A stretch of DNA of 64,000 bases from Brachionichthys hirsutus (GCF_040956055.1 NC_090911.1:1460830-1524829), one strand, 5' to 3'; shown: positions 15,790-64,000, counted from the stretch's first letter. Notes: generated by a model not told the origin, from the letters alone. Numbers and translations: made by a program.

Positions 15790-16765
15790 GCAGAATGTGG
15801 GTTCTGCAGAACAGCCTCACACTAATGACCTCCAGAATGTGGGTTCTGCAGAACAGCCTCACAGTAATGACCTCCAGAATGTGGGTTCTGCAGAACAGCC
15901 TCACAGTAATGACCTCCAGAATGTGGGTTCTGCAGAACAGCCTCACAGTAACGACCTCCAGAATGTGGGTTCTGCAGAACAGCCTCACACTAATGACCTC
16001 CAGAATGTGGGTTCTGCAGAACAGCCTCACAGTAATGACCTCCAGAATGTGGGTTCTGCAGAACAGCCTCACAGTAACGACCTCCAGAATGTGGGTTCTG
16101 CAGAACAGCCTCACAGTAATGACCTCCAGAATGTGGGTTCTGCAGAACAGCCTCACAGTAATGACCTCCAGAATGTGGGTTCTGCAGAACAGCCTCACAC
16201 TAATGACCTCCAGAATGTGGGTTCTGCAGAACAGCCTCACACTAATGACCTCCAGAATGTGGGTGCTGCAGAACAGCCTCACACTAATGACCTCCAGAAT
16301 GTGGGTTCTGCAGAACAGCCTCACACTTCTCTGCCGGTGCAGCAATGTCTGCTGCTCCATGCTCAGAAGTGACGTCAGAGCTCAGTGCCTCGACGTCAAA
16401 AACAGACAACTCCTCCTTCATCCTCTGGAAAACGTGCGTCGCTCGAAAAAGAAAACATCTCCCCCAGCCTCGCCATTTCTTCTTCTGTTTGCACTCCAGC
16501 TACAAAGAATCGCGTCTCCTTTTCACTCTGGCGTGCTGAGATGACGCTCAAACTACCTGTGGCGGCGGACGTCGATTAGCTGCGTAAAAACGCACGCGAC
16601 TCTCCTCGTTAGCTGCGGCATCCGGTCACCGGTCACTCACTGGCTCACGTTGAAAAGTAGCACAGCATGAATTTTATTTTCAATTCAGGTTGGATTTTGT
16701 TTTTGTGCGCTGCGGAGATTTTCGCATCAACAGTGCACAATTACGCACGTGCGCAGCTTAGAGGG
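15790..16765 (+). repeat. left arm of a large inverted repeat: a 42 bp tandem array (15790-16335, about 13 units of GAATGTGGGTTCTGCAGAACAGCCTCACAGTAATGACCTCCA) plus about 430 bp of unique inner flank
   Basis: The 42 bp periodicity is visible directly. The inner flank 16335-16765 is the reverse complement of 24850-25370. Confidence 0.9.
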
Positions 16766-17214
16766 AACGTTGGTGGCAAGAATTCTCTAAACAGCTTAAA
16801 GCTGGACTCTGAAACACTGGAGAACAAGAGAAAGAGAAAGAGAAAGTTTGATTTTAAAAAGTAATTACACCCCATCACCCCCACCCACCCACAACCCCAC
16901 CCCACTCAATGCATTCCACTTAACACCACGCCACTGAAACGCATGATAGTGCACATTGGACCCTTTTATGATTGTGATTCTTGGTGAGTGAAATGAATGC
17001 ACATTTTACAAGGTATGCTTTTTGTTTTTGTAAATAAAACATCATGGGATTTTTTTGTTCTGTTGGCTGACCTTTTTTGCGACAAGCATCCAAAAAGCGA
17101 TGAGTTACAAATAAAAAATAGTACATTGTTTGTTTGTTTTTCTTCTTTTAAAATGATCAGTTTAAAAATCAGTTTACCGTAATGAACCAGCCAAAAGCAA
17201 AGAAAAGGACTTAC

Positions 17215-18110
17215 GATGCATTTGTTGGGTTTTTCCCCAGAATGGACCCTCATGTGGATGAGCAGCTTGTAGCGCGCGTTGAAGGGTTTGTGGTGTCGCA
17301 CACAGCCGGCCCAGAAGCACGAAAACTCTTCCCCTTTGCGCTGATCGATGTGCACCTTCTCAATGTGCCTCACCAGCGCCTCCTGACTGCTGTAAGTGGC
17401 ACTGCAGTCAATCCAATGACATGGCTGGTCCTGCTGGTCCACTGCAAGGTCCTGTCTTGTGGGTCCATTAAGCTTCTGTAATGTATCTGCGGTACTGTCC
17501 TGACCGTCGTGGCTGTGAGGCAGTAGGCCCACCTGGAACAGTGCCTCCTGCTGGCTGTTCCCTTCATACGGTTCCCTCTTACATGCGGAAAAATCCTCTG
17601 CAGGCTCTTGTTTGATGGAATGATACTTGTCCTTTATTGTTTGTTGATAACTGTTGTTGCCCCCAGGTGCATTAGAAATAGGCAAAGATAAAGATGAGGA
17701 GGAGGAGGAGGAAGAGGAAAGAGAGGATATCGGAGAGCCAAACGGATGAGCTGGAGGGCAACTGCTGAGCATACAGGACAAAGAGAGGCAGGGCTGGGGG
17801 TAACAACTGAACCTCGGGTTGTTGTTTTTAGGATCTGTACACACGGTTGTGGCAAAGTCCTCCACAGCTGCTTCTGTGTGGGGTCCGGCTGTCTTACAGC
17901 TGAGCAGAGAGGTTAGGTCCCGTCCCAGCGACGACAGGGACAGGGAAGTCCATGGCGCACAGCAACCACCCAAACCGCCTGACTGCGTCGACGACTGAGA
18001 AAAACCCTCCGAGGAAAGTGGGGCCTGAAGGTCCTCGGCATCCACAAACAAACTTCCAAAACCTGGAAGAGTCAGCTGAACATCTGGAGGGCCGAGGTCA
18101 GGGGGCCACA
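17215..18110 (-). CDS. glis1: GLIS large 5' coding exon: N-terminal region plus zinc fingers 1-2
   Basis: The exon encodes CHWIDCSATYSSQEALVRHIEKVHIDQRKGEEFSCFWAGCVRHHKPFNARYKLLIHMRVHSGEKPNKCI, closed by the donor TGCATC|gtaagt. The upstream IKQEPAEDFS motif, the CVRxxKPF residues and the FEGC in the next exon favour GLIS1 over GLIS3. That paralogue assignment rests on memory of the family alignment. The candidate ATG at 18108-18110 is assumed; an upstream exon cannot be excluded. Confidence 0.8.
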
Positions 18111-21097
18111 TCTTGGCCCCCAACGATTTCCACTAAGATCTCTGATGATTCTCTTCAAGCAGCTTTAGGAATCCATTGGAGGCAAAGCCACCGATAGGCT
18201 CTTTCAATTCTTAAATCTTCTTAGATTGCTGCCGTCGTCTCATCTCATCCAGAGTCTTCTGTCATTTGTTCCGAACTGCTGCTGGGTCAGTCGTCTGCAT
18301 GCACTGTGGGAGACAGAAGCCAAACCCACATGAGTCATCTTAAAGGACAAAAACCACAAACACAAAGCCCTTTGTGAGCCAACAGCGGTCGAAGTACCCA
18401 GAGAGGGTTACAGGGTAACTAATTATTTTAGTCCAAAAAGTTCTCAATTAGATGTAGAAGCTTTGCGTGTAAACTCCTGCCAGGCCCTATTGAGGATCAC
18501 GAGATGAATAATGAAAGAAAAAGGAAAGAGGAATCACCAAAATCTATATCCAAATTACCTATAATTCCCACAATGCAACTCAATCAACGATACACTGCCT
18601 GGAATTTGTTGGTTACGCTAGTAGCAGCTAATGGGCTCAGATACGCTGTCACTCTGCTAAAATTATTTAACCACAATTAAAATCCAACCAACAACGACTC
18701 AAGTGACATCACATGTGGTAATTGATTCATCTTCTGCTCCCAGTGTTGCAAACAAAGATAGTAAAGAACTAAATTAAACTTTGTTTGCACAGTACGCATG
18801 CGTATACTTGATGTGTAAAATCGTAATTCAGATCAATTGAATCAAAATCAAAGCAATATAGAAAGTACATAGTCCCACATATGTGCCATGTAGCTTTTAT
18901 GCACCGATTTCAGCTGCGCTCATGCAGGCCTTGATCTACTGCACTGCTGTGAATCAGTGGCTCGGCTGGCGTCACAACGTGCCATGGCGTTGAAAGAGCC
19001 GAAACATGAAACCAAAAATGAGTCATATTCTGTTATTTCATCATTTAGTTCAGTCATTAAGCAGCAGAGAGGGTCCCAAATGGAATGAAATAGCATGTCC
19101 GAGCGCCTCGTCCGCAGGCTCCAATCAAACACATGGAAGTGTGACGCTCTGTATATTTAGTCTCCTTTGAGGCGCTGTAGGAGTCAGGGCTGATTCATGA
19201 CTGCGGGCATTAAGGCCACCCTTGCAGCAAATAGCAGCCGTTGTGTGGCCGCCGATTGCCTGGAACCTGGTCCAGATGCTTGTTAACAGAAGAGTAATGG
19301 ACCACATCGGACTGTTAGCTAATGACGCCGCATAGAGGCTGGAAAAGAGGGGATCACCCTGAGGTTCCACCTCCCTGTCACATGCGCAGTAGTTCTACGG
19401 TGATACGGCACTTCAGCGTTTATTGGAGTTGATTTCCCTGTCTTCTGCCATTTAAGAGATATTGATGACCTAATTCACAACAGGATCCCTGTCAGGCGTT
19501 AATAGCCATCGACAGATTCAAAGGGATTTCATGCAGATGGTTCTTTCACGAGCCAGCTGAGAGGATGAGTAAGTTCTCCTCTGCGGTTTATATTAGCCGA
19601 TGATGGAGTTACTAAGTGTGGGTCCTTGCCCCACAGTTTCCTGGTACAGTCGGGTTTACAGCTTTATAATTATTCCTGTAAAGGGCAGGAGTTGCCACCG
19701 TGGAGTCACATAGGAGAGCAGTCATGGGAGGCGTGGCTGGTTCTTAATTAGAGTTGGACAGGATTAATGATACGTGCACAGCAGAAGTCATCAATCAAGG
19801 CGTTTGAAATATAATTGTTACCCAGTACAAAGGTAACAACCGTTACATTTAAGATTCAAATGTAAAATGAGAAGGAGAAAAAACCTCAAAGGATATTACT
19901 GATACGTCATCTTTATTAGTCATTAAAGTCCAGCATCAACTGAGAAACAACGAGGGTGCAGACGGGGGGTTTCTTGCCCCTGAATGTTCAGGAGCCATTT
20001 CTTGGCCCAGATCCAGAAAGAAGAATCCTAAATTAAAACCAAGAAAAGCGTCTCGCATAACCACAACCGAGCATGCAAACAATAAAACAGCAGGCACGTC
20101 TCATGCGGTGGCTTTTAAAGCCCCACATGTTAAGCTGAGCTAAACACAGCTGTGGCATTTCATGACAAACAAACAAGAACTCATTTCACAATAAGCCCTT
20201 TTTTGCAAATGGTTCGGGGCTTTTACGTTCCACTGAAACATGCTGAAGCCCTTCTTTAGATTGTTTAGTCAAAAAAAATGAAAGGAAGCTTAGAAACATT
20301 TATGAGGCATGAGGGTTTTTTTATGTTGTTTTAAATTAAAGGTTGTTATTTTTTTATATACTGCGCAAACATAATCGATAAGACTTTTTTTTAAAGATCT
20401 TTAATTGTCGGTGGTGGTATAGCATATTCAGTACAGAACCATATGGAATTAGCATCATGTATATCCAAGTACATTTGAGAACACTGCCTTTATTTCATTT
20501 CTGTGTAAATCATATCAGATTCTATGACTTAGCGAAGGATAATAAGAGCTGCAGATCTTAGTTCTTGGATTGGATCAGAATACTTTTGTGCAAAGAAGTA
20601 CCCATATGTGTAGTATATTTTAATGGAATATGTTTGTAGGAGAACAAAATGTCTTAAAGGTGGTTGGCTGACCACTTTCCCACATGTCTCAGGTGTTGTT
20701 GTGAAAGACGTGAGAGACCAATAAGGCTATAAAGGAGAATTCTGAGCGGAGGTGGAAAGTTTTCACTTTGATTTGCACCTCGGGGTCCCCATTTTCAAAA
20801 GCAGCAACCAGCATTTAATTGTGAACAAAAAGCACCTCAAAGTTGTACAAAGAACGGAGAAGACAAACAGGTCAGCCGCCTCACCAAACCAGGGATGTGG
20901 CTCCGATGAGTGACAGCAGACTGGCTAACATCCTCCTGTTACAGGTGTGAGCACAGCAACAATAAGGACCCGCCTGCTCTGCCTGCAGACTCCTGATAGA
21001 CATAACCCATGAGATACAGGGTTAACCCTCACCCTTCCTCCCACCTCCAAAAACATGCAAATGATCTGAATTGGTTACACTAAGTTGTCCATACGTG

Positions 21098-24849: not shown

Positions 24850-26435
24850 TATTCCACCGAACCACGTTCCCTCTAAGCTGCGTGCGTGCGCAATTGCGCA
24901 CTGCTGATGCGGTCTTCGCGCAGCGAAAACCTCCGCTGCGCGCAAAAACAAAATCCAACCTGAATTGAAAATAAAAGAAAAAAGTTAAAATTCATGCTGT
25001 GCTACTTTTCAATGTGAGCCAGTGAGTGACCGGTGACCGGCTGCCGCAGCTAACGAGGAGAGACGCGTGCGTTTTTACGCAGCTAATCGACGTCCGCCGC
25101 CACAGGTGTTTGAGCGAACAACGCGGCGTGGCCGATGTGGAGGGAAGACGCTTAATAATAAAGACAAGGCGAACGGGCGGTGACGTCATCTCAGCACGCC
25201 AGAGTGAAAAGGAGACGCGATTCTTTGTAGCTGGAGCGCAAACAGAAGAAACGGAGAGACTGGGGGAGATGCTTTCCAGAGGATGAAGGAGGAGTTGTCT
25301 GTTTTTGACGTCGAGGCACTGAGCTCTGACGTCACTTCTGAGTATGGAGCAGCAGACATTGCTGCACCGGCAGATAAGTGTGAGGCTGTTCTGCAGAACC
25401 CACATTCTGGAGGTCATTACTGTGAGGCTGTTCTGCAGAACCCACATTCTGGAGGTCATTACTGTGAGGCTGTTCTGCAGAACCCACATTCTGGAGGTCA
25501 TTAGTGTGAGGCTGTTCTGCAGAACCCACATTCTGGAGGTCATTACTGTGAGGCTGTTCTGCAGAACCCACATTCTGGAGGTCATTAGTGTGAGGCTGTT
25601 CTGCAGAACCCACATTCTGGAGGTCATTACTGTGAGGCTGTTCTGCAGAACCCACATTCTGGAGGTCATTACTGTGAGGCTGTTCTGCAGAACCCACATT
25701 CTGGAGGTCATTACTGTGAGGCTGTTCTGCAGAACCCACATTCTGGAGGTCATTACTGTGAGGCTGTTCTGCAGAACCCACATTCTGGAGGTCATTAAAG
25801 TGTGAGGCTGTTCTGCAGAACCCACATTCTGGAGGTCATTACTGTGAGGCTGTTCTGTAGAACCCACATTCTGGAGGTCATTAAAGTGTGAGGCTGTTCT
25901 GCAGAACCCACATTCTGGAGGTCATTAAAGTGAGGCTGTTCTGCAGAACCCACATTCTGGAGGTCATTACTGTGAGGCTGTTCTGCAGAACCCACATTCT
26001 GGAGGTCATTACTGTGAGGCTGTTCTGCAGAACCCACATTCTGGAGGTCATTACTGTGAGGCTGTTCTGCAGAACCCACATTCTGGAGGTCATTACTGTG
26101 AGGCTGTTCTGCAGAACCCACATTCTGGAGGTCATTACTGTGAGGCTGTTCTGCAGAACCCACATTCTGGAGGTCATTAAAGTGTGAGGCTGTTCTGCAG
26201 AACCCACATTCTGGAGGTCATTACTGTGAGGCTGTTCTGTAGAACCCACATTCTGGAGGTCATTAAAGTGTGAGGCTGTTCTGCAGAACCCACATTCTGG
26301 AGGTCATTACTGTGAGGCTGTTCTGCAGAACACACATTCTGGAGGTCATTACTGTGAGGCTGTTCTGTAGAACCCACATTCTGGAGGTCATTACTGTGAG
26401 GCTGTTCTGCAGAACCCACATTCTGCTGGTCATTA
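24850..26435 (-). repeat. right arm of the inverted repeat: unique inner flank (24850-25370) plus about 25 units of the same 42 bp tandem repeat in reverse-complement orientation (25370-26435)
   Basis: The repeat is the reverse complement of the left-arm unit (ctgttctgcagaacccacattctggaggtcattactgtgagg). Some units are 45 bp variants with an aaagtg insertion. Confidence 0.9.
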
Positions 26436-36498: not shown

Positions 36499-36879
<381 letters not shown>

Positions 36880-36946
36880 TAAAGCAAGTTTTTGGCCTGT
36901 AGTTTGCCCAATCTACTTCAAGATACCAATGTCAAACTGGGCGGGG

Positions 36947-50704: not shown

Positions 50705-52303
50705 CTAAATGTGCAGCCCGTCTTCCAGCAGCTTCCTGGACTGCCTTCGAGACCCGCGCTGGCCGTGATGATGATGATGATGATGATGATCGAGGTCGCC
50801 ATCGTTTGCCCTCATATCTCTGTCCTTCCTCTGACTCCCCCCCTCCCCCTCCCCCTCCCTCTTCCCCCTGTCTTCAGCCCCTGCTCTCTCGAACCGACTC
50901 CTCATGCTCTCGATCTTGCTCCCTCGCCTCTCGTCCTCCGGAGCTGCTCCCCTCCTGGAGTCAGATTCCTCTGGCCTGCCTCCCCCCTCCCTCCCTGAAT
51001 GCTCCTTTATCCACGACGCTTCATGTCTTTGATGTGATTCGGTTCTTCCCGTCTCTCTCTTCTCTCCTCTGCTTTTTGCCACCTCACCTCTCTCATCCCT
51101 CTCTCCCCTGTCCTCCTCAGTCCTCCTCCAGCTCTCTGTCCTGTGGCTCCCTCTGGTTTCTGGTTTGCTCTCACTTTCTCTCCTGGGGGGCTTTTCTTTG
51201 TCACTGCTGCTGCTGCCATGCCTCCACATACGGCCAGTCCCCTCCTCTTTATTCATCACTCCTTCATCGCTTCCTCTCTGGATCTTTGTCTTGCCCCTCC
51301 CCTCTTCTTGCTTTGGTCTACCTGACCCAATCTTTCCTTCCTTGTGTTCATTCCCAGTCTTATTCCACTCCCTTTCCCTTTCCTTCTCACCCGTCTTGAT
51401 TCCTGCACCACTCTCTTCTTTTGGAACGTCTTTCTTGCTCTGGATTTGTTCTTTTCCAGCTGTAGCACGATTCTCAGTTTCTTTTTTCTTTTTTCTGTCT
51501 TTGTCAGGCTGTTCTTTTGAATCCTCCTCTTTGGCTCCTTTCAATGCATCCCTTTTCTGCTCCTTATCTTCCTCTAATTTGGAATCATACTTGTTTTTGC
51601 CTTCCCCCTTCTTTTCGGATTTCTTGTCATCCCCTTTTCCCTCCTCCTTCTCCTTCTTTCCTTTAGGCTCTCTGGATTCTTTCGAGCTCTTCTCTTCATT
51701 GTCCTCCTTGTTATTTTTTAGATTCTGCTTCTCCAGCTCGTCTCTCTTCTTCTTCTCCTGCTCCTCCTCGGCCTTCTTGTCTAGTTTCTCCTCCAAGAGG
51801 TCCAGCTCCTGATCCAGCTCAGCCAGCTTCTCTGGATCAGACTCAAAATCATGGTCGACTTCCACCTCCACCTCCTTAATCTCCTCGTACTCCTCCACCT
51901 CGATGCCATCCATGGTCTTCTGCAGCTGCGTCTTCACCTTGTTCAGCTCCAGGAGGCCGTCCTGGAGTTCCTTACACACGTCCCTGATCTTGGTGGCAAA
52001 CTTGGTTTTGGCACCCTTGCGGAGATCATGGGAGTCTTTGGCAAGGAAGAAAACATCGAGGGCCAGGAAGAGGGCCGACATGACCCCCGTGGTGACGCTG
52101 ATGGCCTGGGCGGCTTTGGCGGCACCTCCTGCAACCCCTAGAATCTGGACTGTGCTGATGAGCTTATCGGTGTTGATCATCAGGGCTTTTCCAGCTCGGC
52201 CCCCCTCCTTCATCACATGCTTGAGGTTGTGGTTCAGGGCCTTTTTGGTAGCACTTTGTGAGTACTTTTCAAAGTCCCACTCGTCTAGGGTGTTCATGCC
52301 CGC
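50705..52303 (-). CDS. ApoL-like gene, large 3' exon: conserved ApoL C-terminal region plus a roughly 400 aa E/K/R/G-rich low-complexity extension ending in His8
   Basis: The acceptor is tcttgcag|GCGGGCATGAAC. It encodes …GVMSALFLALDVFFLAKDSHDLRKGAKTKFATKIRDVCKELQDGLLELNKV…, matching the teleost ApoL motif VFLLMDVVSLVKDSKHLHEGAKSE…ELE.KLEEL. The frame then stays open for about 1.2 kb (EEK…DLDHHHHHHHHGQRG…*). Confidence 0.7.
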   Translation of the reverse strand, partial: AGMNTLDEWDFEKYSQSATKKALNHNLKHVMKEGGRAGKALMINTDKLISTVQILGVAGGAAKAAQAISVTTGVMSALFLALDVFFLAKDSHDLRKGAKTKFATKIRDVCKELQDGLLELNKVKTQLQKTMDGIEVEEYEEIKEVEVEVDHDFESDPEKLAELDQELDLLEEKLDKKAEEEQEKKKRDELEKQNLKNNKEDNEEKSSKESREPKGKKEKEEGKGDDKKSEKKGEGKNKYDSKLEEDKEQKRDALKGAKEEDSKEQPDKDRKKKKETENRATAGKEQIQSKKDVPKEESGAGIKTGEKEREREWNKTGNEHKEGKIGSGRPKQEEGRGKTKIQRGSDEGVMNKEEGTGRMWRHGSSSSDKEKPPRRESESKPETRGSHRTESWRRTEEDRGERDERGEVAKSRGEKRETGRTESHQRHEASWIKEHSGREGGGRPEESDSRRGAAPEDERRGSKIESMRSRFERAGAEDRGKREGEGEGGSQRKDRDMRANDGDLDHHHHHHHHGQRGSRRQSRKLLEDGLHI

Positions 52304-52834: not shown

Positions 52835-53287
52835 CTGTACGAACTCCATACACTCTCTGATGACTTTGATTTCATCCTGGTAGCCCTGGATCATCTTCTC
52901 CAGCTTCTTCCGGTCCATGTTGGAGTGGACCGTGTCTGTGATATTGGCCGTCGCTGAGGTGATGCTGCCCGCCGTGGCCACACCGATCCCCACCGCCGTC
53001 ACAATAATGGACGCACCAAAGGTGAACGGAGCCAGGATGAGCCCGGTGATTGTTGCCACGCTGCCGGCGACGCTGGCCACCCCTCCACCCACAGCAGCTG
53101 ACACCGTTTTCTTGTGGAACTGATCCGAAGCGTCAGCCAGAGCGAGAAGCTCCAGGATGCGATGCTGTAGGGACGCCCCCCGCTGGTTGAAAAGGCGCAC
53201 AAACAGCCGGGCTGCCATGTAGACTCGGTCGGCAGCCTGCTCCATGGCCCTGCAGAGACACGGGGAAAGGACATCGTGTGTTCCAGA
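52835..53287 (-). CDS. ApoL-like gene exon with putative transmembrane/membrane-insertion region (…AMEQAADRVYMAARLFVRLFNQRGASLQHRILELLALADASDQFHKKTVSAAVGGGVASVAGSVATITGLILAPFTFGASIIVTAVGIGVATAGSITSATANITDTVHSNMDRKKLEKMIQGYQDEIKVIRECMEFVQ)
   Basis: The Gly/Ala/Val/Thr-rich hydrophobic helices match the apolipoprotein L family membrane-insertion domain. The donor is GTACAG|gtgagg. The acceptor choice (gaacag|TCT at 53288-53290, giving 151 codons) is inferred. Confidence 0.7.
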
Positions 53288-53806
53288 CTGTTCAAGTTCA
53301 AAGAAATCGTGTCCAAAGTGAATATTGCAAATAAAGATGGCTGGATCAACCAATGAGATAAGCAGCCTCCATAAGTGGAGTAACAAGCCTGTACAAATCC
53401 TGTCAGGGTGACAGCAGAGCTGAGAAAAGAAGCTACCCTCACATTTCCCCTTCATCTTCACTGAAGTTGGATGCCTCGTTCCATTCCGTCCAACCTGGAA
53501 GTCGACATCATAAAACGTTTATGTGGAGGGGAGAGAGGAGACCAATAGACAGAGTGATGGGTTATTGTTTTATTCAACTATGAAGGAGCATTTATGGAAT
53601 CTTTTAAAGGAAAAAAGCACAACAACAACAACAACAACTCGTCTGGTTAAGACAATCAGACAAACCTTTGACTGTATTCCACCACTGCATCAGCTCATCA
53701 GCTTCCTGTAAATGGAAACTCGTCAATAAAAGGCACAGTGAAAAACAGCGTTCGCGTCTGACCCGTCGCCTGATCTAACAAAAATTAAAATGGGTAAAAA
53801 GCTCAC

Positions 53807-53887
53807 CTCCTCGGGGGCCGCAGGGTCGTGTTCCGTTGGGTACGCTGCCATCTCAACGGGTTGGACCACCAGCTCCTCTGAGCTCTC
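53807..53887 (-). CDS. ApoL-like gene exon (ESSEELVVQPVEMAAYPTEHDPAAPEE)
   Basis: The acceptor is tttttcag| and the donor is GAG|gtgagc. It is 27 codons, phase 0. Confidence 0.55.
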
Positions 53888-54137: not shown

Positions 54138-54203
54138 CTGTGCTGGTTTCAGATCCCGCATCTCAACAGCCTCCTCCTCAATAGCAGACATCCTGTCTGG
54201 ACC
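54138..54203 (-). CDS. ApoL-like gene, 5' coding exon containing an in-frame ATG (GPDR-MSAIEEEAVEMRDLKPAQ)
   Basis: The minus-strand ATG is at 54189-54191. The donor is CAG|gttagc. The exon also has an upstream acceptor (cctccacag|), so it could instead be an internal exon. Confidence 0.5.
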
Positions 54204-54514
54204 CTGTGGAGGGGAAGAAACAAAACGTAAGAAAGCGGTAAACGTGTGGAGCCAAACTCAATGCAAGAGACGCTGAATCACACTTTGTGGCGATAGAACA
54301 TGCACGTTGAGACTTTAACAAGCTGATTGGGTTCTTTAATCATTTGAAAAAGCATCGTAGTAAAAAAAGCAGCTTCATCTCATCACCGTTTTCTTTGACC
54401 TGAGATAAGTGAGCAGAGCGCCTTGGTTTCCCTGTGCCCCTGAACGCATCTCATTTTAATCAAAGACGTTGGTGCTCTATTGTGATTTGTGTTATTTATT
54501 TATTAATAAATAGA

Positions 54515-54900
54515 GAACCCACGCAGACACGGGGAGAACCCGGAGAGAACCCACGCAGACACGGGGAGAACCCGGAGAGAACTCACGCAGACACAGGGAG
54601 AACCCGGAGAGAACCCACGCAGACACGGGGAGAACCCAGAGAGAACCCACGCAGACACGGGGAGAACCCGGAGAGAATCCACACAGACAAGGGGAGAACC
54701 CGGAGAGAACCCACGCAGACACGGGGAGAACCCGGAGAGAACCCACGCAGACACGGGGAGAACCCGGAGAGAATCCACACAGACAAGGGGAGAACCCGGA
54801 GAGAACCCACGCAGACACGGGGAGAACCCAGAGAGAACCCACGCAGAGAACCCGGAGACAACCCACGCAGACGCGGGGAGAACCCGGAGAGAACCCACGC
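54515..54900. repeat. 32 bp tandem repeat, about 12 units (cacgcagacacggggagaacccggagagaacc)
   Basis: The 32 bp periodicity is visible. The unit is homologous to the internal segment (ccggagaaccc…agagaaccca…cgcag) of the adjacent SINE. Confidence 0.85.
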
Positions 54901-55012
54901 AGACACAGAGAGAACATGTAAACTCCTCACAGAAAGGCCACAAGCCGGATTCAAACCTGCGACCTTTTCGCTGTGAGGCAGCAGCGCTAACCACTGCGTC
55001 ACCGTGCAATGT
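54900..55012 (-). mobile_element. SINE 3' part / tRNA-like head (same family as 1560-1700), contiguous with the tandem array
   Basis: The sequence is agagaacatgtaaactcctcacagaaaggccacaagccggattcaaacctgcgacc…gctgtgaggcagcagcgctaaccactgcgtcaccgtgc. Confidence 0.75.
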
Positions 55013-55247
55013 TCACGGTAATCATTTTAATACAATATAAAAAAAGGGTAAATACTGAGCGTGTCGATGTCTGTAAATATTTTAAGCGGTCCAAATGAGT
55101 CGGTGAAGCTCAGTGACAGATCAGTACGCACCAAAGCTACGTCAAACTTGGGTGTTTGGGTTTTCTTGACTCGGAAAGACACAACCTAAAAAAGGAAAAA
55201 CAAGAAAGGAGGAGTTAGGAAGGATCCACGACAAGGTAGGAGGAGGA

Positions 55248-55364
55248 TTAAACTATTTTAACATCGTGACATATGCCATGCGCCCAATTTACTCGGGTTT
55301 TCTTCTTGATGGTTCTTTTGCGTCTCAGGCCGCCTCCTTCTGGGTTCTCCGTGTCCTTACTGTC
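55248..55364 (-). CDS. modular gene last exon (DSKDTENPEGGGLRRKRTIKKKTR-VNWAHGICHDVKIV*), containing an internal candidate donor CGA|gtaaat at 55293
   Basis: The acceptor is ggatgcag|GACAGT and there is an in-frame stop at 55248-55250. If the gtaaat donor at 55292 is used instead, the frame continues into ApoL-like exon 54138-54203. Confidence 0.45.
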   Translation of the reverse strand, partial: DSKDTENPEGGGLRRKRTIKKKTRVNWAHGICHDVKIV

Positions 55365-58300
55365 CTGCATCCGCAGACAGAGAGCAACAGAACGGAGGGA
55401 TAGTTCAGCAGCCAGTAGTTCGGTAGTTTATTACGTAACGAATCACGCGGCGCTCTTGTTTTCTGAAAAGCATCTTTCTGGGACCACAGAGATAAAAACG
55501 TAACGATAACAAACTAAAGGCCAACGGAAGTCAAACAGTCTACAAACTTGACCTGGTGTCAGGAACGAACATCTCGCTTCATCTCGCTTCAATCTCTTTC
55601 CTTTTCACACTGAACATTGGGGGAAAATTAGTTTCCCGTTTATTTTGATGGTTTGACTTTTGCTAACTTAAATTCTACTACTTGTGTGAGAATAAATTGC
55701 GATTTCTGGTGCACAATCCTAATTATTTTATTAATGAATAACAATTTAAATGTATATCTAATTATTTATTTGTCAGGATCACAATAAAATGTGTGCGATG
55801 TTTCCATACACGTCAGAGTTCTATCTGTGCTGCTCTTTCTAACTAATAACAATCAATAGATCGTCACGTCCATACCTGATGATCAATTGTTTTGGGCGTC
55901 CTCCTGAAAATTCCACCAAATCCTCCTTTTTTCTCCTGCTAGAAAAAGATCACACACGAAGCATAACTTAAAGGGCCCCCAGACAAAGCGAGACTGCAGA
56001 AGTCCTCACCTTGCTGCCGCTTCCTGCTTCACAAAGATTCTCAGCGCTGGCTGACAGTTCTCCTGCGCCGCCCTTTGAGTTCAGAAAATGAAAATCATCA
56101 ACTATGAAGCCGGTGGTGAAGCTGAAACACGCAACAGAGCTCGACACTCGTTGAAAAGTAGAAAGAAAATATATTCAAAATCTATTTTTAGATGCTCTTT
56201 GCTCGACTTTTTTTATAGTACTCCCAGATGTTTGGAGTGTAATCCATGATTTCGGCCGTCAGCATCAGCGTTGTGAGAAGTGTTACCCTCTCAAAGGTGT
56301 CAAACACGAACACGCCGGACCGCTTCAAGTATGTCTCACCTGTGCCGTCTCCACGAGGCTGTCCCAGCTGGAGGACAGGTCCATCGTGTCCTGGAGCGGA
56401 TCCTGGAGAACGAGACACAATGTTTGGTTGGATCTGCTCAAAGTTCAAATGAGCCTTGAACTGCGGCTAACCATGCCGCAAACAAAACAAAGCAAATTGA
56501 GTCAATGCGGTCACCGTGGTAACGGCTGAACGCTCAGCCAGTTTAGGCTTTTTGAAGATCCCCGCCAACCCCCCCTTCTTCTCCTGAAACAGACGAAAGT
56601 CTAATGAGTTAATAGTCACTCAAAAGCAGGACAAAGAAAAGCTGGCTCAGATTCACCAGGTGTTTGTGTGCCAGCCTCCTCTGTATCATATCATCATCAT
56701 CATCATCAATCGTATCTATCGGCAGAGTAACGGTGGAACTCATTGATTTTATTTTCATTGATTTTATTTTATTTTTTTATTGTTCTCGTTGTCTTCTTGA
56801 GTATAAACTTTTAACTTTAAATGACAGGACTCTGATCCACCGTTGGAATCTTTACGCCACACTACCCCCCCCCCCACTTAAGAAAGCACAACATTCAAAA
56901 CGCAGCCTCAGCGTGTTCAGCCGCTTTCAGAAACGCTGCTACGTGTGAGCACGCTTTCGTTACACATTACCTTGGGGTTTCCTGACAGGCTGTCCACGCT
57001 CCCCGTCAGCTCCTTCCAGTCATCGTTGTCCTGAAGAAGAAGAAAAACAAACGACAGGAAATGACATGCGCAGCAGCAGGTGATGATGATGATGAATATA
57101 TTTATTAGATAGAATGCTAGGGGCCCAGCGCGACTGGCCACACACACCTACCCCGGCCTCCAGTGCAGGCGTTTTAGCTGTTTTCTTGATCAGCCCACTG
57201 AACAGCCCACCTTTCTCCTGATGAGCAGACATCCACACGGCTTCATTCAATAATATCCACTCCACTCATGCTGAGTGTAAAGAGAACATGGAACAAAGAC
57301 TATTGTCCCCCTAGTGGTGCCTTTAACGGCAGGTAACCGTGGTAATGCACACAGCGACGACTCTGACCTCATCCAATATGTTTTCGATGCTGGCTGATCT
57401 TTTGAAGATGCCGGTCAGACCTCCTTTCTTCTCCTAAACATGACAGAGTTCTGTTATCAGGGGGCAGAAACTGCAGTGACATTCCCAAGTCCTGCATGAA
57501 CCGGATTTGGCTCGCTCATTAGGAACAGGGACACGCAATATTCGGATCCAGCAGGTCCGGATTACAGTATAATCTGAAGCTTCAGCACATTATAGATACT
57601 CATGGATCCATCCATCAGTCGCTCTCATTCCTGTTGTGGTGGGGGGGGGGTAACTAAGTACCGTACATGTAATGTATTGTTTATGTCACACTTATTCACA
57701 CCCTCATTAGTTTTGATTTAAAATAAAAAGGAATAAGAATTACCAAAACTCAACGTGTAACTTTTTGAAGAGAAATCATTTTGTTTTCCTTTTAAAATTG
57801 CTAAAAAGAAATACATAAAAATAACCGTATGGTTAAAATATAACCTACTTGGACTGAAAATGTTCGATGAGTGAGTTTCATGTCTGCCCTTTGCTTTTTA
57901 TTCTTTTATTTATTTGTATTGTATTTATTTGTAAATGCAGCGCTAAACAGCAACAACAACCACGAAAAGCACAAAAAGTCGTTCCTACAGAAGCGAAGGA
58001 AAATCGAGATCAAGTGATATGAAAGCACCTTCGACGCGGCGGCGTTGGACAGATTCTCACAGCTACGAGAGAGATTGTCACTGGGCATCTCCTGCTTCTG
58101 AATTCAAACAGGGGGGGGGGGGACAAATATTTATTCCATCCAAAACAAGAAGCTATTCAAACTAATCACATAAATCAATGAAATGCAGGACCTGGTCCGC
58201 TGCAGCGTCCTCTGCCGGCTTCTGCGGCTTCTTAAACAGGTTGCTGAAAATGCTTTTCTCCTGAAAGATCAATCGTTGTCACTGAGCAACAATAAAGAAA

Positions 58301-61300
58301 TGTCTGTGTTTGTGTCGTTTGCTGCTCACCTTAGTGCTGCTATTCTCAGACAGGTCGTCAACGCTGCCCGCCGGCTCTTTCTGAGCCTCTTTGTCCTGAA
58401 AATGAATGAATGAATGAATGAATGAATGTTGCAGGACAACCCCAGATCCGGCGTTCCTGCCTAATGTCGCCCTAACCCCAACAGTCCACCACGTGATCGT
58501 TCTTGCACCCACTTTGTGCCGCAGCGTCCGAGTCACCAATCAGCTTTGGTAAACAGTAAACAACATCCAGCATGGTGGCACAGTGGTTAGCGCTGTTGCC
58601 TCACAGCAAGGTCACAGGTTCAAATGCAACTTGGGGCCTTTTTGTGAGGAGTTTGCATGTTCTCCCCGTGTGTGCGTGGGTTCTCTCCGGGTTCTCCGGC
58701 TTCCTGCCACTTCCAAAAACTTGCAACGTAGGTGAATTGTTCATGCTAAATTGTCTGTAGGGGTGCGAGTGCCTGCCTATGTGTGGCCCTAATGTGAACT
58801 GGCGATATGTCCGGGGTGTACCCCAACTCTCACCCGTAGATTGCTGGGATAGGCTCCAGAACTTAAAAGCAAACAGATGCGTTCTTGTACCTCTCCAGGA
58901 TGAGCAGCTTCATCAGGTTTGGGAGCCTTCTTGAATAATCCACTAAATATTCCTCCTTTCTCCTTAACATACACGTTCAGACAATGAATACTTGTTCTTA
59001 GGGTTATGTCATTATTCAGATTCCTTTTCTAAAGCATGTAGAATACAGAACAACGCAAAACAATCCTCACTTTGGTGTCCAGAGCTTCGTTGCTGCCTGA
59101 GAGCTCACTGCCTTGCTTCTCCTGGGAGAGAATTAAAGCACAGGAAGCCGAGGAGGCGACAGAACCGTCACATTTCATGAATTACTGCGAGGAGCAGCTG
59201 AGCTCAACCATCACTTTTCTAAACTTGTCACAGCTTGACTTAGAATCAGTCTAGGAAGTTCTGTGAAAGCACAATGATTGGCTGAGTGTGACGTCGAGAA
59301 CAACAGAAATGTTGATCGAGATGAATGCAAGAAATAAAACACTTTTTTTAATCTGTCCATAATTCTTAAAGATGTTTTTAACTGTAATTCTAAACTAGCA
59401 AAGGCCTGAAAACAGAAGAATATTAATTCAACTGTTCAATGACATGCAAAAATCTGACCTTGGCGTTGGCAGCTTGGGGAAGATCGTCACTGCTGGCTGA
59501 CGGATCCTTCCGTGCCGAGACGTTCTCCTGAAACAGGAATTAAATTAAATCCAGATTAAACGTCCAGAACGTTTACGTTTACGTTTAAGTGTTTCAATCC
59601 GAGTGCATCGTGTTTTTTGTCATGCCTTTTTTTCTACATAGCGGAGGCTGCTTTGCTCAAACACGGATTCAGTCACGCTAAGCTGTGTGAGAAACCCTTC
59701 GGAGCATCGTGAGAGGTTTTCATCTGTTCAGTGGTGTTTTATATTTATGGTGTAATTTGGATTCCTTTAATTACACAGATCGTTAAAGCCTGCTGAATGA
59801 CAGACACGCAGCTAGTATGTTAGAGTGAGCCCTGTCAGTCCGTGCATCCGTGCGTCCGTGCGTCTGTGTGAAGAGGCCGGGCCTTTGTACCTCTCCAGAT
59901 GTTTTTGGGGTCTTCCTGAGGAGTCCACTGAACAAGCTGCCTTTCTCCTAGAGGGCAGAGAACAAATTCAAGAAAGTTGATGACTTATTTTCTTGACACT
60001 CTTCTCTTTCTTTCGGCTGAGGGGTCGCCACAGCAACCCAACGTTCTCCACTTCACCCTGTCCTTTGCATCGTCCTCCCCAACACCAGCCACTCTCATGT
60101 CCTCCCTCACTACGTCCATGTCTCTTCTCCTGGGTCGTCCTCTAGCCCTGTCCTTTGCATCGTCCTCCCCAACACCAGCCACTCTCATGTCCTCCCTCAC
60201 TACGTCCATGTCTCTTCTCCTGGGTCGTCCTCTAGTCCTGTCCTTTGCATCGTCCTCCCCAACACCAGCCACTCTCATGTCCTCCCTCACTACGTCCATG
60301 TCTCTTCTCCTGGGTCGTCCTCTAGCCCTGTCCTTTGCATCGTCCTCCCCAACACCAGCCACTCTCATGTCCTCCCTCACTACGTCCATGTCTCTTCTCC
60401 TGGGTCGTCCTCTAGCCCTGTTCGCTGGCTGTTCCTTCCTCAGCATCCTTCTACCGATACGGTTTTTCCTCGCACTGGTTTATCGGGCCGTTAGCGACGA
60501 GTCTGACCTTGCGGACTGACCTTGTTCTCCGACAGGCTGTCGGTGCTGGAAGACAGCTCAGTCTGTAACGACGCGGCGCCCTTCACACAACAAAAGGGTT
60601 ACTCATGTCAGAATGAGAGATGGGAACAATATTCCAGGCAGTTTGTAAATACATGCTTTACCTCCTCCAGTCTGGGGTCCTCTGACAGTTTGGGGGATTT
60701 CTTAAACATGCCACTGAAAAGGCCTCCTTTCTCCTGATGATTGAAGAAAAACCACACCGTAAAAAATGACTTGTCCGTTTTAGCTGCTGTTTGCATTTGG
60801 GTAAAACTGCCTCGGTGATTTGACAGGCAGCCTGTGCTCGGAGAGGAAGGGGAATCGTCCCCTTCGTCGTAAGATTCGTGTTAGACTAAATAGCTGCAAC
60901 AAAATAATGTGCGTCAGTGACCAAATAGGCTTTCATAGATAAAACAGGAAGTAGAAGCATCGCATTACAGATGGAAGATGGGTCGTTATAAAATGAATTA
61001 CAGGTCGGTCGCCGGGACGAATCATTTCGGAGCCTTACCTTGGTGGGGGCGTTCTCAGAGAGCGTCTCGGCACCGTCTGGTGGGTCTGTCGGCAGCAGCT
61101 GAACACCATGAAACAAAGATTAACAAACACAAAATAAAACTACAGAAATCCAGCCGTTTGATCTTCCTGCTGCTCACATGGACGCCACCTTCTTTATTCC
61201 CTTTCTCTTCACAGCTCAAGAACACGGAAGTCCGTGCATTTCCACTAACAATCAGTGCGTATAAATGTGGGTCACACATTTTCACCTTGCCAGCCGCTTC

Positions 61301-63629
61301 CTCTCTTGGTATCTTGGGAGACTTTCGGATTATCCCACCAAAGAATCCTCCTTTCTCCTAGCAACATGCGATTAAATTACACTCTCAGTCCAGTAACGGC
61401 TCAGCGAATCCAGTCAGATCACAGATCTCTGAGCTCACCTTTGAGTTTTCAGACAGATTATCATTACTGCCTGATAGGTTTTCACGTACAGACTGTTGGT
61501 CCTGAAGGGCAGATGAACTGGTTCAGTTGGGTAATCTACTGGATTAAAGTAATCCCACTGAAAGACTTTTCGTCACCTTGTCAGTCGGAGCTGCTTCCAC
61601 TGGCTTCGGAGACTTCCTGAACATCCCACCAAATATTCCACCTTTTTCCTGAAGCAGAAGTGCATGATTGATCACGCAGGATCACTGAGGAGGATCTAGT
61701 CTGTACGTAAACGTTACCTCTGCTCCAACACAAGGCAGAATGAAGACGCCGCTCACCTTACCGCTGCCGTTTTCAGACAGACTCTCACTGCTGGCAGACA
61801 ATTCAGCGTTAACGGTCGGATTCTCCTGAAGCACCAACAAGAAAGAAGGGATCGTTCACATGCCATGAATGCCATCAGCACTTCTGTGAGATGAGGCACG
61901 AAGCCATCTTTGAAACAGACCTGTGCAGATGCCTCATCTATTGACTTATTGGAATGTTTCTGCTCACGAGAGAATAAGCCTCTCATTTCCTGTAAATAAA
62001 AAGGCCGGGGTAATATATTAAAACATATATTTGTGATCATATTAACTCAGTAAATGCCAGTGACGTTGAAAGACGTCAATCTAAATCCAAATCTAAGGAC
62101 AAAAGACGTCAACTGGGATTGAAACTGAATTCTGACTCTCTTCGACAGCCAATGCAAAACGATAGGAACACACATTGTTTTTCCTGATGAAAGAAGAAGC
62201 TTTAATCTTTCATTTGGTCTTTGCATAGTCTAGTACCTAATATTCTGTGGGTCTCGAAAAATAGGGCAAAATTAGCTGAAAAAGGCTGGCACTGAATGAG
62301 TTAAATGAGAAAGAGCATCACATGCTAAAGATGCTGCACAAAACCACAAAATGACCTACTTGGGACTTTTCAGAACTTTTCTCTTCAGCGTCTTCTGCCT
62401 CTTCAGGATCGCTGTTTGCTCTGACCTGGAAATGGAGCGTAACAGAATGAGTTGGGGCAGGAAGGCACCAAATGTGGCACATTCAGCATCTGAACATAAG
62501 CAGAAGCACTGAAGTTACCGATTTGTCTTTGGGAGTCCTCCGGAAAATCCCAGCAATTAGATCTCCTATGTCCTGAGTAAAACAAAAAGGGGGTGAGAAC
62601 AGAAGCCCTGATGTTTAATGATAAGCTCACTTTAAAGGCAGTTCCTAAACTTCTCAATTTGATTCGATAGTCAACAGAAAATCTCTCGTCTTGCAGAAAA
62701 ATACCGTTTTCCGTTTCTGTCTGCAGAAATCTAATTTTGAAACGGACACATCTACGTTGTCGTTCCTTTTTCTCTGGCTTCGTCAGAACGGACGTTTGAA
62801 CAGAATAAAGGCCTTTAAAGTTTATTTTCTGTCTCTCTTACCTGTTTAGGTTCTGCATACTTTTCCTGCTTGTTCTTCTCTCTGGATTGTTCTCTTTCTG
62901 TGCCTGGTTTCTCCGTGCTGGCCTCGGGACTCGGTTCTCCTTTAGCCTTAGACAAAATCAGCACAGATTGGTTTCAGACAAAGAATTTAAGTCGTAAATG
63001 CTTCAGACAACTTTGCTGAGAACTGAGAACGGTCACAAATGGTGGGATATTTGGTAAAATATGAAAGTGCAGGTTTTAAAAGCTGACAGTGAGATAATCT
63101 CATGTGTCCCTGGGGGGTATTTTCTGTCTGAGAAATGAGTAGAAATGAAGGAAATGATGAAAAGACATTAAAATATCAGGGGGAAGAAACAAAAATCAAC
63201 TGGGTAGTTTAGCTGTGCTTCTTAATTACATTTCCTGTTAGTTGCTGAGAGATGAAAAGGTTCTAAAGCTGCTTCCCCAGCACATGAGAAGTGAACCGAC
63301 TTTCAAGTTGAACAGCTTTTTAACTGCGCTTTGGACAAATCCCACTCCCGGAACGAGCCCAAGCTCACATTCTGACCAGACTCAGCCCTCGTTGTGTGTA
63401 CGCGACAACGCTTCGTGGAACGATGTGAAAGTGGCGCACCAGATAGGAAGTGTCACGGACAGACCCCCATTCCTATATCTCACTTTGAATGCAGTGGTGT
63501 TATGAATCCTAGCATCAAATCCCACGTGTACAAAAAACAAAGACACACACAGACACACACCGGTTTGCTGCCTGGAGCCTGTTTGGTCAGGACAACATCA
63601 GATGTTTCTTCTTTATCACCGTCATCCAT
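55248..63629 (-). CDS. novel modular gene (span) of at least 25 tiny phase-0 exons (54-105 nt) alternating between cationic EKGG[LI]FSG[LM]FKK.PK… modules and acidic …LS.S.DSLSEN..K modules. The first coding exon is 63561-63629 (MDDGDKEETSDVVLTKQAPGSKP). The last exon starts at the 55364 acceptor.
   Basis: A regular series of minus-strand exons each has AG acceptors (…cag|GAGAAAGG…) and strong GT donors (…|gtgagc, gtaaag, gtaggt). The verified exons are listed as separate features. The family is unidentified. Confidence 0.6.
55876..55938 (-). CDS. modular gene exon, cationic module (QEKKGGFGGIFRRTPKTIDHQ)
   Basis: The acceptor is ttttctag|CAGGAGAAAAAAGG and the donor is CATCAG|gtatgg. It is 21 codons. 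Confidence 0.6.
57152..57217 (-). CDS. modular gene exon, cationic module (EKGGLFSGLIKKTAKTPALEAG)
   Basis: The acceptor is ctcatcag|GAGAAAGGTGG and the donor is GCCGGG|gtaggt. It is 22 codons. Confidence 0.65.
58572..58880 (+). mobile_element. full-length tRNA-derived SINE (about 310 bp) in an intron of the modular gene
   Basis: The element runs from a ggtggcacagtggttagcgctgttgcctcacagcaaggtcacaggttcaaatgc… tRNA-like head, through a gagtttgcatgttctccccgtgtgtgcgtgggtt… body, to a …ggataggctccagaac tail. It is the same family as the minus-strand copies at 1560-1700 and 54900-55012. Confidence 0.85.
58891..58962 (-). CDS. modular gene exon, cationic module (EKGGIFSGLFKKAPKPDEAAHPGE)
   Basis: The acceptor is tgttaag|GAGAAAGGAGG and the donor is GGAGAG|gtacaa. 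It is 24 codons. Confidence 0.65.
60050..60420. repeat. 90 bp tandem repeat, 4 units, derived from an interspersed-repeat segment (gtcctttgcatcgtcctccccaacaccagccactctcatgtcctccctcactacgtccatgtctcttctcctgggtcgtcctctagccctg)
   Basis: The 90 bp period is exact and begins after ttcggctgaggggtcgccacagc, a common teleost repeat motif. It is intronic. Confidence 0.8.
60662..60733 (-). CDS. modular gene exon, cationic module (EKGGLFSGMFKKSPKLSEDPRLEE)
   Basis: The acceptor is atcatcag|GAGAAAGGAGG and the donor is GAGGAG|gtaaag. It is 24 codons. It is followed at about 60512-60571 by an acidic-module exon (GAASLQTELSSSTDSLSENK). Confidence 0.65.
61285..61356 (-). CDS. modular gene exon, cationic module (EKGGFFGGIIRKSPKIPREEAAGK)
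   Basis: The acceptor is ttgctag|GAGAAAGGAGG and the donor is GGCAAG|gtgaaa. It is 24 codons, phase 0. Confidence 0.6.
62519..62572 (-). CDS. modular gene exon (DIGDLIAGIFRRTPKDKS), a degenerate cationic module
   Basis: The acceptor is tactcag|GACATAGG and the donor is AAATCG|gtaact. It is 18 codons. Confidence 0.55.
62842..62946 (-). CDS. modular gene exon 2 (AKGEPSPEASTEKPGTEREQSREKNKQEKYAEPKQ)
   Basis: The acceptor is tctaag|GCTAAAGG and the donor is AAACAG|gtaaga. It is 35 codons, phase 0. Confidence 0.55.
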
Positions 63630-64000
63630 CACATAACTCTAAGAGGGGGGAGAGAGAAGACCTGCAGCTGAACAGCTGCCCAAAACAGAATCCAACAAAT
63701 GTTGTAGAATTTGAATAAAGCGGGAAGATTACAAGGATCTTTTTTCCACTTCCTCTGAAATAGGTAGATCAAGCATCTGTTCGAAAATGTTCCTTAAAAA
63801 GTCAACACATTTCCTGAGGCCTCTGTTGACGGATCAAGCATGGGGCAAGCTAGCAGACAAGCAGGACTGTTACTGGTCTGTCCTCTACTGGGAGCCACTC
63901 GAGTTTGAATATTTCACATGAACACAAACGTAACTGTCTAAATCGACACAAACGTTACAGGTATGACCGCGAGTTCCCTCTTCTGCCTCCAGTAAGAACA

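Follow-up and report, generated by a model that had tools for sequence, protein, structure and literature searches.

The stretch of DNA considered here comprises 64,000 nucleotides of the genome of the handfish Brachionichthys hirsutus (NC_090911.1:1460830-1524829, termed the window, with positions counted from its first letter) and carries on its minus strand a long series of very short exons followed by exons encoding an ApoL domain. Mechanical extraction of open segments lying between AG and GT recovered 27 exons from 63638 to 55293, all bounded by AG and GT and all of a length divisible by 3, with three further phase 0/0 exons (exons 28-30 in Table 1) bringing the run to 30 consecutive symmetric exons. 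The earlier note on this DNA had reported such a series of symmetric phase-0 mini-exons and the mechanical rebuild bore this out, every peptide that it quoted being found in its place. Its size range of 54-105 nt holds at the upper bound and fails at the lower, the 27 exons measuring 51-105 nt with exon 15 (59121-59071) the smallest at 51 nt.

Exons 3-26 encode two types of module, a cationic A module and an acidic serine-rich B module, in the order A b a B A B A B A B A B B A B A B A A B A B B A, where lower case denotes degenerate copies and the final typing was made by eye and by profile, regular expressions being too strict. Alternation of the two types, as had been noted earlier, is the usual arrangement without being strict, with B-B at exons 14-15 and 24-25 and A-A at exons 20-21. 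When the six-frame translation of the window was searched with a 47-aa profile of A plus B, 13 matches (domain E <= 1e-3) came out, every one of them on the minus strand and within 62560-55885, with no match in any of 20 shuffled windows, so that the module pattern is beyond chance.

The series does not stand by itself. On the same strand it splices via 55185, 54203, 53887, 53705 and 53494 into ApoL-domain exons at 53249-50705, a continuation traced by mapping the Cottoperca protein P0018 and the Perca protein P0006 onto the window. As assembled, 34 AG/GT exons form one open frame of 1372 codons ending at a TAG stop at 50705, the 30 consecutive 0/0 exons being followed by exons of phase 0/1, 1/2, 2/0 and 0. 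The Pfam ApoL family (PF05461) matches aa 708-961 with E = 2.8e-33 (116.1 bits against a cut-off of 25.9, profile positions 43-297 of 298), and within it lie two hydrophobic segments (Kyte-Doolittle >= 1.5) at aa 751-801 and 904-929. No segment reaching that value occurs in aa 1-640, where hydropathy peaks at 0.28. Searching Pfam with the array alone and with the full protein returned no family but ApoL above cut-off, in keeping with the earlier description of a repeat that could be assigned to no family. Weak matches to Tk-SP_N-pro and p47_phox_C fell below cut-off and were discarded, as was a precomputed PF26369 flag on the Cottoperca protein P0003, a 'faint' UPF0426 match that was not reproduced.

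Database comparison points the same way. A conceptual 601-aa array protein, searched as the earlier note had advised, gave 123 matches, all the named ones teleost and most of them proteins of about 1000 aa with a C-terminal ApoL domain. Teleosts filled the match lists, leaving no tetrapod sequence among them. The array-to-ApoL architecture recurs in P0018, P0006 and P0122, with full-length orthologues of 1460-1703 aa holding both parts. An exact-sequence look-up of P0006 gave no match. In the same species the RefSeq protein XP_068604901.1 ('myb-like protein X', P0136) spans array, linker, ApoL domain and tail and is identical to the assembled model at 1125 of 1125 aligned residues. Because the frame is open to the stop, the ApoL domain is recognised by Pfam, the RefSeq protein is identical and orthologues share the architecture, the mini-exon series is read here as the N-terminal coding part of one large ApoL-domain gene, the handfish orthologue of apold1a / si:rp71-1g18.13, with a probability of about 0.93. 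Orthologues extend some 130-150 residues N-terminal of the first exon in the window, and for this reason the ATG at 63629 is taken to be internal and the true 5′ end to lie beyond position 64000. The earlier placing of a start codon at 63629-63627 therefore has to be given up, there being an AG acceptor 9 nt upstream and the ATG aligning to internal residues of orthologues.

The RefSeq model takes an internal Met of exon 7 as its start and is without exons 1-6, 8 and 9, 16 and 19 with the frame kept, its identity elsewhere providing independent confirmation of the junctions of exons 7, 10-15, 17, 18 and 20-34. Exon 26 has two acceptors in tandem, separated by 3 nt (tag|cag|GAG, 55935-55938), of which RefSeq takes the upstream one, adding one Gln. 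The exons that RefSeq omits were found in none of 338 retrieved proteins. The handfish RefSeq model is incomplete, with ten exons and the 5′ end missing, and the name 'myb-like protein X' is a compositional artefact. Orthologues are labelled apold1a, si:rp71-1g18.13, with LOC numbers or with other compositional names ('titin homolog', 'dao-5-like', 'piccolo') and, like the handfish gene, have the array, an 'RVVSFRVK' linker, a 'WW.TV.GW..WNE' motif, the ApoL domain and a charged tail. RefSeq has a model of the gene in handfish, and the other teleost entries with one number well over a hundred, so that the gene is already part of public annotation; what is uncharacterised is the repeat.

Transcript evidence comes from other fishes. 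A trout contig from a public sequencing run (L004) is 99.9% identical, without gaps, to isoform X1 of Oncorhynchus mykiss over 1116 aa. A single open reading frame (ORF) in it takes in eight di-modules and the linker as well as the ApoL domain and tail; upstream lie one retained intron and, before that intron, more A/B exons. A second contig (L002) shows the same joining of array to ApoL for the paralogue. From these two contigs it follows that spliced transcripts over such exons exist. Isoforms of one species differ by clean cassettes with no mismatch elsewhere, the cassette being a single B module in O. mykiss, O. clarkii and Oreochromis aureus, the equivalent of exon 1 and a small following exon in Solea and Pholidichthys, and one A module in the paralogue of Syngnathus typhle. 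Of the extensive combinatorial splicing proposed from the symmetry of the exons, the annotated isoforms support frame-safe skipping; the isoform pairs compared differ by one or a few cassettes, which does not demonstrate extensive combinatorial use. The small exon 'VGLKGVMKGLQIKSSPK' ('GLKGVMKGLQ') that follows exon 1 in Cottoperca (L001 13879-13929), Solea and Pholidichthys was not found in the handfish intron at 63560-62947.

In Cottoperca gobio (locus L001) the gene is annotated as two abutting models, P0003 and P0018. Comparison of the window with this locus by blastn gave 49 segments, 46 of them overlapping exons, which cross the boundary between P0003 and P0018 and are collinear with the exons apart from cross-matches between repeat copies, the introns being unaligned. 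Among the exons omitted by RefSeq, 1, 3, 5, 6, 8, 9 and 19 are collinear and conserved in Cottoperca; exons 2 and 4 have protein-level matches only, and the blastn matches of exon 16 are to other A-type exons with none clearly orthologous. Over 11 exon pairs of equal length and with shared AG/GT boundaries, dN was 0.23 and dS 0.56 (dN/dS = 0.41). Short ORFs of other fishes reading '...FQ|EKGGIFSG...EE|V...' represent the same exon with its CAG acceptor and GT donor, such short family members being ORFs through single exons on unspliced genomic contigs and not transcripts. That the mini-exons are real coding exons is supported by their conservation where introns have diverged, by dN/dS below 1 and by the RefSeq identity, and the suggested synteny check in another teleost finds the Cottoperca exons collinear and running on into the ApoL-coding part. 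Two non-coding blocks in intron 1 (Table 1), 86-88% identical to the Cottoperca intron (L001 14972-15110), make up all the conserved intronic sequence at the locus and might function as an element for splicing or transcription.

Table 1. Exons of the handfish ApoL-domain gene and other features of the window
Feature	Position	Strand	Evidence and remarks
Exon 1 in window, SYVMDDGDKEETSDVVLTKQAPGSKP	63561..63638	-	AG acceptor at 63638; holds internal ATG 63629-63627; aligns to internal 'SYLIPDKEDNTDNVPAKKAPGSKP' of P0003 (Cottoperca); cassette in Solea and Pholidichthys isoforms
Exon 2, charged linker AKGEPSPEAS...YAEPKQ, 105 nt	62842..62946	-	Phase 0/0, AG/GT; counterpart in P0003 'ASREPSPD...KNKPKQ' (by reading sequences)
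Exon 3, A-like DIGDLIAGIFRRTPKDKS	62519..62572	-	81% DNA identity to Cottoperca L001 15660-15717
Exon 4, acidic VRANSDPEEAEDAEEKSSEKSQ	62360..62425	-	Splice sites; protein-level match
Exon 5, degenerate A EMRGLFSREQKHSNKSIDEASAQ	61921..61989	-	Splice sites; Cottoperca comparison
Exon 6, B ENPTVNAELSASSESLSENGSGK	61757..61825	-	Splice sites; Cottoperca comparison; repeat profile
Exon 7, A EKGGIFGGMFRKSPKPVEAAPTDK	61577..61648	-	RefSeq model begins at internal Met here
Exon 8, B DQQSVRENLSGSNDNLSENSK	61439..61501	-	Not in RefSeq model; Cottoperca length and AG/GT boundaries equal
Exon 9, A EKGGFFGGIIRKSPKIPREEAAGK	61286..61357	-	Not in RefSeq model; Cottoperca match; repeat profile
Exon 10, degenerate B LLPTDPPDGAETLSENAPTK	61039..61098	-	Junctions confirmed by RefSeq identity
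Exon 11, A EKGGLFSGMFKKSPKLSEDPRLEE	60662..60733	-	RefSeq, Cottoperca, repeat profile
Exon 12, B GAASLQTELSSSTDSLSENK	60521..60580	-	RefSeq, Cottoperca
Exon 13, A EKGSLFSGLLRKTPKTSGE	59891..59947	-	RefSeq, Cottoperca
Exon 14, B ENVSARKDPSASSDDLPQAANAK	59459..59527	-	RefSeq, Cottoperca
Exon 15, short B EKQGSELSGSNEALDTK, 51 nt	59071..59121	-	RefSeq
Exon 16, A EKGGIFSGLFKKAPKPDEAAHPGE	58891..58962	-	Not in RefSeq model; repeat profile
Exon 17, B DKEAQKEPAGSVDDLSENSSTK	58330..58395	-	RefSeq, Cottoperca
Exon 18, A EKSIFSNLFKKPQKPAEDAAADQ	58192..58260	-	RefSeq, Cottoperca
Exon 19, B KQEMPSDNLSRSCENLSNAAASK	58029..58097	-	Not in RefSeq model; Cottoperca match
Exon 20, A variant EKKGGLTGIFKRSASIENILDE	57368..57433	-	RefSeq, Cottoperca
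Exon 21, A EKGGLFSGLIKKTAKTPALEAG	57152..57217	-	RefSeq, Cottoperca
Exon 22, B DNDDWKELTGSVDSLSGNPK	56971..57030	-	RefSeq, Cottoperca
Exon 23, A variant EKKGGLAGIFKKPKLAERSAVTT	56515..56583	-	RefSeq, Cottoperca
Exon 24, B DPLQDTMDLSSSWDSLVETAQ	56340..56402	-	RefSeq, Cottoperca
Exon 25, B GGAGELSASAENLCEAGSGSK	56010..56072	-	RefSeq
Exon 26, last A EKKGGFGGIFRRTPKTIDHQ	55876..55935	-	92% DNA identity to Cottoperca; RefSeq
Exon 27, basic linker DSKDTENPEGGGLRRKRTIKKKTR (holds RRKRTIKKKTR)	55293..55364	-	RefSeq, orthologue mapping
Exon 28, VVSFRVKKTQTPKFDVAL	55132..55185	-	Beyond the span of the earlier note; RefSeq
Exon 29, GPDRMSAIEEEAVEMRDLKPAQ	54138..54203	-	RefSeq, Cottoperca
Exon 30, ESSEELVVQPVEMAAYPTEHDPAAPEE, last of 30 symmetric exons	53807..53887	-	RefSeq
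Exon 31, EADELMQWWNTVK-, phase 0 in, 1 out	53666..53705	-	RefSeq
Exon 32, -WTEWNEASNFSEDEGE-	53443..53494	-	RefSeq
Exon 33, first part of ApoL domain, hydrophobic hairpin aa 751-801	52835..53249	-	94% protein identity to P0018; Pfam ApoL
Exon 34, remaining ApoL domain (second hydrophobic segment aa 904-929), acidic stretch, tail, stop	50705..52303	-	
Intron 1, two conserved non-coding blocks	62991..63025 and 63068..63100		Cottoperca comparison
Intron 12, 90-bp unit, 4.1 copies	60056..60421		99% identity; 153-aa minus-strand ORF (RARGRPRRRDMDVVREDMRVAGVGEDDAKD...)
Intron 28, 32-bp minisatellite, 12.9 copies	54512..54915		88% match; spurious ORFs on both strands
Reverse-transcriptase fragment	504..1517	-	Pfam
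C2H2 zinc-finger exon	16966..18123	-	Pfam
RRM exon	36526..36882	+	Pfam
Minisatellite arrays with common unit (MWVLQNSLTVMTSR in one frame)	15717..16544 and 24992..26249		Opposite orientation, about 8.5 kb apart

In intron 12 the repeat has the look of a minisatellite that expanded recently, with a retroelement tail as its possible source. Beyond the ApoL domain, exon 34 encodes a tail of about 400 aa (window 51900-50705) that is rich in K, E and R and has a His8 run near the C-terminus. The tail-coding part has a strong purine skew on the coding strand, and the tail diverges fast, being about 56% identical to that of Cottoperca where the ApoL domain is 94% identical.

The repeat itself amounts to about 12 tandem copies of a 47-aa di-module across exons 3-26, one module per exon. 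Iterated profile building collected 780 units from 121 proteins with the consensus EKGGVFSGMFKKSPKPAEARTQSQDDLSADSELSASNDSLSENSNTK, in which the A module reads EKGG-phi-F-S/G-G-phi-F-K-K-x-P-K and, after a variable spacer of about 10 residues, the B module reads (D/E)-L-S-x-S-x-D-S/N-L-S-E-N-x-x-x-K. The conserved core positions are G4, F6, G8, F10, K11, K12 and K15 in the first and L33, S34, S36, D38 and L40 in the second, with conservation over the 780 units reaching 84% at G8, 82% at K15, 87% at S36 and 81% at L40 and not exceeding 33% at spacer positions. The array is hydrophilic and rich in S, K, E and G, with charges summing to +10 over the clear A exons and -19 over the clear B exons. 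AlphaFold2 run on the unit with 68 alignment rows gave no secondary structure (pLDDT 64.5, pTM 0.13). A motif scan of the window protein found no NPF, two W-x-x-L sites in B modules and a single RVxF-pattern match, 'RVVSF' at the junction of exons 27 and 28; these sites are too few to build on.

A search of 1.84 billion representative proteins with the repeat profile gave 116 matches. All members whose source was looked up are teleost, with the longer ones grouping with two ApoL paralogues, and the motif pair is kept in both paralogues from eels to percomorphs. Unit number is 9-13 in eels and tarpon, 8-12 in salmonids, 10-17 in percomorphs and 6 in milkfish, falling to 1-3 degenerate units in Cypriniformes including zebrafish, where the orthologues (zebrafish and carp P0303, P0311 and others) measure 610-720 aa; these short orthologues reflect a lineage-specific collapse of the array. 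The profile outliers P0155, P0161, P0183 (nematode), P0185 (bacterial), P0189 and P0218 have at most a G-phi-F-K-K/R-x-P motif or are junk, and were not accepted as homologues. Among these, the nematode proteins P0155, P0183 and P0161 and the protein P0185 from a bacterial metagenome have long tandem repeats that are unrelated to the array, with a motif like the A core in each unit (KIVGMFKRTP, ITGLFKKSP, SFFGGWFKKDKSAKP), which may be a convergent short motif.

The handfish protein is closer to members of the apold1a type than to those of the apol1 type. The latter paralogue ('apolipoprotein L, 1'; P0014, P0074) likewise has an N-terminal array of 47-aa A/B di-modules and a C-terminal ApoL domain, and differs in that the ApoL regions are about 41% identical, in a middle region with NPF and VPPRP motifs and in the lack of the long K/E/R tail. 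The Cottoperca gobio locus has an ApoL gene immediately upstream and in the same orientation (L001 1-3593). This is probably the apol1-type paralogue carrying the A/B array, in which case its handfish counterpart would sit beyond position 64000. No paper was found on the repeat, on apold1a or on si:rp71-1g18.13, and papers on APOL evolution and on zebrafish apol1 are silent on the repeat. The zebrafish apol1 literature has considered a 2.6-kb ApoL-only locus, and the lineage variation, with 1-3 degenerate units in Cypriniformes, fits its silence.

A role for the array can be proposed tentatively from the sequence. ApoL proteins are membrane-associated, and the array would be an intrinsically disordered arm, presumably on the cytosolic side, of a protein that the hydrophobic ApoL hairpins anchor in the membrane. 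The A cores, with two aromatic/aliphatic pairs and Lys-Lys bracketed by Gly and Pro, could make many weak basic-hydrophobic contacts to acidic membranes or to a partner, with the acidic, serine-rich B cores and their S-x-x-D/E sites offering phosphorylatable counter-charges. Together the two modules might act as a multivalent, tunable electrostatic tether or scaffold, the length of which would be set by unit number and exon skipping. Several observations weigh against this arm or against parts of the gene model that bears it. The A core has no predicted helix, S-x-x-D/E sites do not cluster in B exons (the 8 clear B exons have 6, the clear A exons 2 and the unclassified exons 9) and the cytosolic topology is assumed from reading the N-termini of orthologues. 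The 1-3 degenerate units kept in Cypriniform orthologues indicate that the array is dispensable for the role of the ApoL core, a dN/dS of 0.41 reflects moderate constraint only, and exons 1-6, 8, 9, 16 and 19 are carried by conservation and splice-site logic only.

It is possible, if doubtful, that the array is instead a docking platform in which A cores, B cores or both each bind a specific folded partner domain, making a multivalent scaffold and not a membrane-binding arm. Conserved cores with variable spacers and disorder are typical of motif arrays, and the disordered unit has two sharply conserved cores split by variable spacers. NPF and VPPRP motifs, which EH and SH3 domains are known to bind, occur in the paralogue, and the single RVxF-pattern match lies at the end of the array, but the A and B cores match no known motif class. 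An unlikely alternative is a polyampholyte resembling Nopp140 and Treacle, forming condensates or binding in a chaperone-like manner with no membrane role for the A cores. This would account for charge that alternates by block and for the presence of S-x-x-D/E sites, the F/G-rich A cores may resemble cohesive 'sticker' motifs, and automatic names such as 'nucleolar protein dao-5-like' mirror the likeness in composition. Against it, there is no Pfam match to the Nopp140 or Treacle families, the hydrophobic ApoL hairpins suggest a membrane over a nucleolar location, and the A core is a specific conserved motif and more than a basic block.

As to the origin of the array, repeat copies are 74-84% similar, a similarity that gives out no more than 11 nt from the exon edges, from which we infer old tandem duplications of a two-exon unit; all array introns being of phase 0, the gain, loss or skipping of a unit leaves the frame intact. 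A range in unit number from 1-3 in Cypriniformes to 17 and the limited degree of constraint would suit evolutionary filler, a low-complexity region expanding and contracting without a function of its own, but this is improbable given the same motif pair in both paralogues from eels to percomorphs, exon boundaries conserved where introns have diverged beyond alignment, and dN/dS below 1. Far less probable still is the stand-alone, unrecognised gene of the earlier note, running from the ATG at 63629 to about 55248 and separate from the adjoining ApoL-like gene. The ATG is in frame, some annotators split the locus (as with Cottoperca P0003 and P0018, 278 bp apart) and some database entries (P0001, P0003, P0009) have the array without an ApoL domain, but no stop occurs before 50705, so the series is the 5′ part of the supposed neighbour, with the same-species RefSeq protein, the trout transcript and full-length orthologues of 1460-1700 aa all joining the two parts and the ATG, 9 nt from an acceptor, matching internal orthologue residues. 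Exonisation of a transposable element or other dispersed repeat as the source of the modules, raised earlier as a possible refutation, has next to no likelihood despite a repeat-rich locus with minisatellites in introns 12 and 28, for outside the array the module profile matches neither strand of the 64 kb, copies cease to resemble each other at the exon edges, the mere 116 database matches include identified members that are teleost with the longer ones ApoL paralogues, and orthologous exons are collinear across species.

Returning to the single large ApoL-domain gene, its value as a gene discovery is small because RefSeq already includes the locus. The repeat at the N-terminus forms a coherent, conserved unit for which no Pfam family or literature was found, and it could be defined as a new repeat family. 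That the A/B di-module is an undescribed, teleost-specific functional repeat, a phosphorylation-tunable arm grafted onto ApoL in both tandem paralogues, is a suggestion made with clear reserve; if true, fish 'APOL' proteins, including relatives of the zebrafish APOL1-model gene, would be much larger than the mammalian ones and mechanistically unlike them. The fish ApoL genes that stand in for human APOL1 come from this pair of paralogues, which outside Cypriniformes encode proteins of 1000-1700 aa with the array, a point that is relevant when conclusions are transferred between fish and human.

Mammalian APOL1-6 and APOLD1 have the ApoL domain (PF05461) with hydrophobic hairpin segments as in the handfish protein but, at roughly 280-430 aa, are without the A/B repeat array. 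The MARCKS effector domain, to which the cationic module had been likened, serves as a working analogy in that Phe and Lys clusters in an unstructured segment are opposed by phosphorylatable serines, but the array has neither a sequence match to MARCKS nor one long effector domain. In MARCKS the effector is one segment, about 25 aa long, that contains about 13 basic residues and 5 Phe, and the protein is N-myristoylated, whereas the handfish array has about 12 short cores of 2-3 basic residues each with the serines in a separate acidic module, and no homology to MARCKS was detected, no Pfam family but ApoL matching at E <= 10. Nopp140 (NOLC1, dao-5) and Treacle (TCOF1) also alternate acidic serine-rich with basic blocks, in Treacle with one repeat per exon, and this likeness accounts for the automatic 'dao-5-like' names; the array differs in having no Pfam match, different conserved cores and an attached membrane-type ApoL domain. 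In gene structure titin PEVK and nebulin are comparable. Those proteins are unrelated to the array, and here there are few annotated isoforms per species, the likeness lying in long runs of short phase-0 exons that each encode one module and can be skipped without loss of frame.

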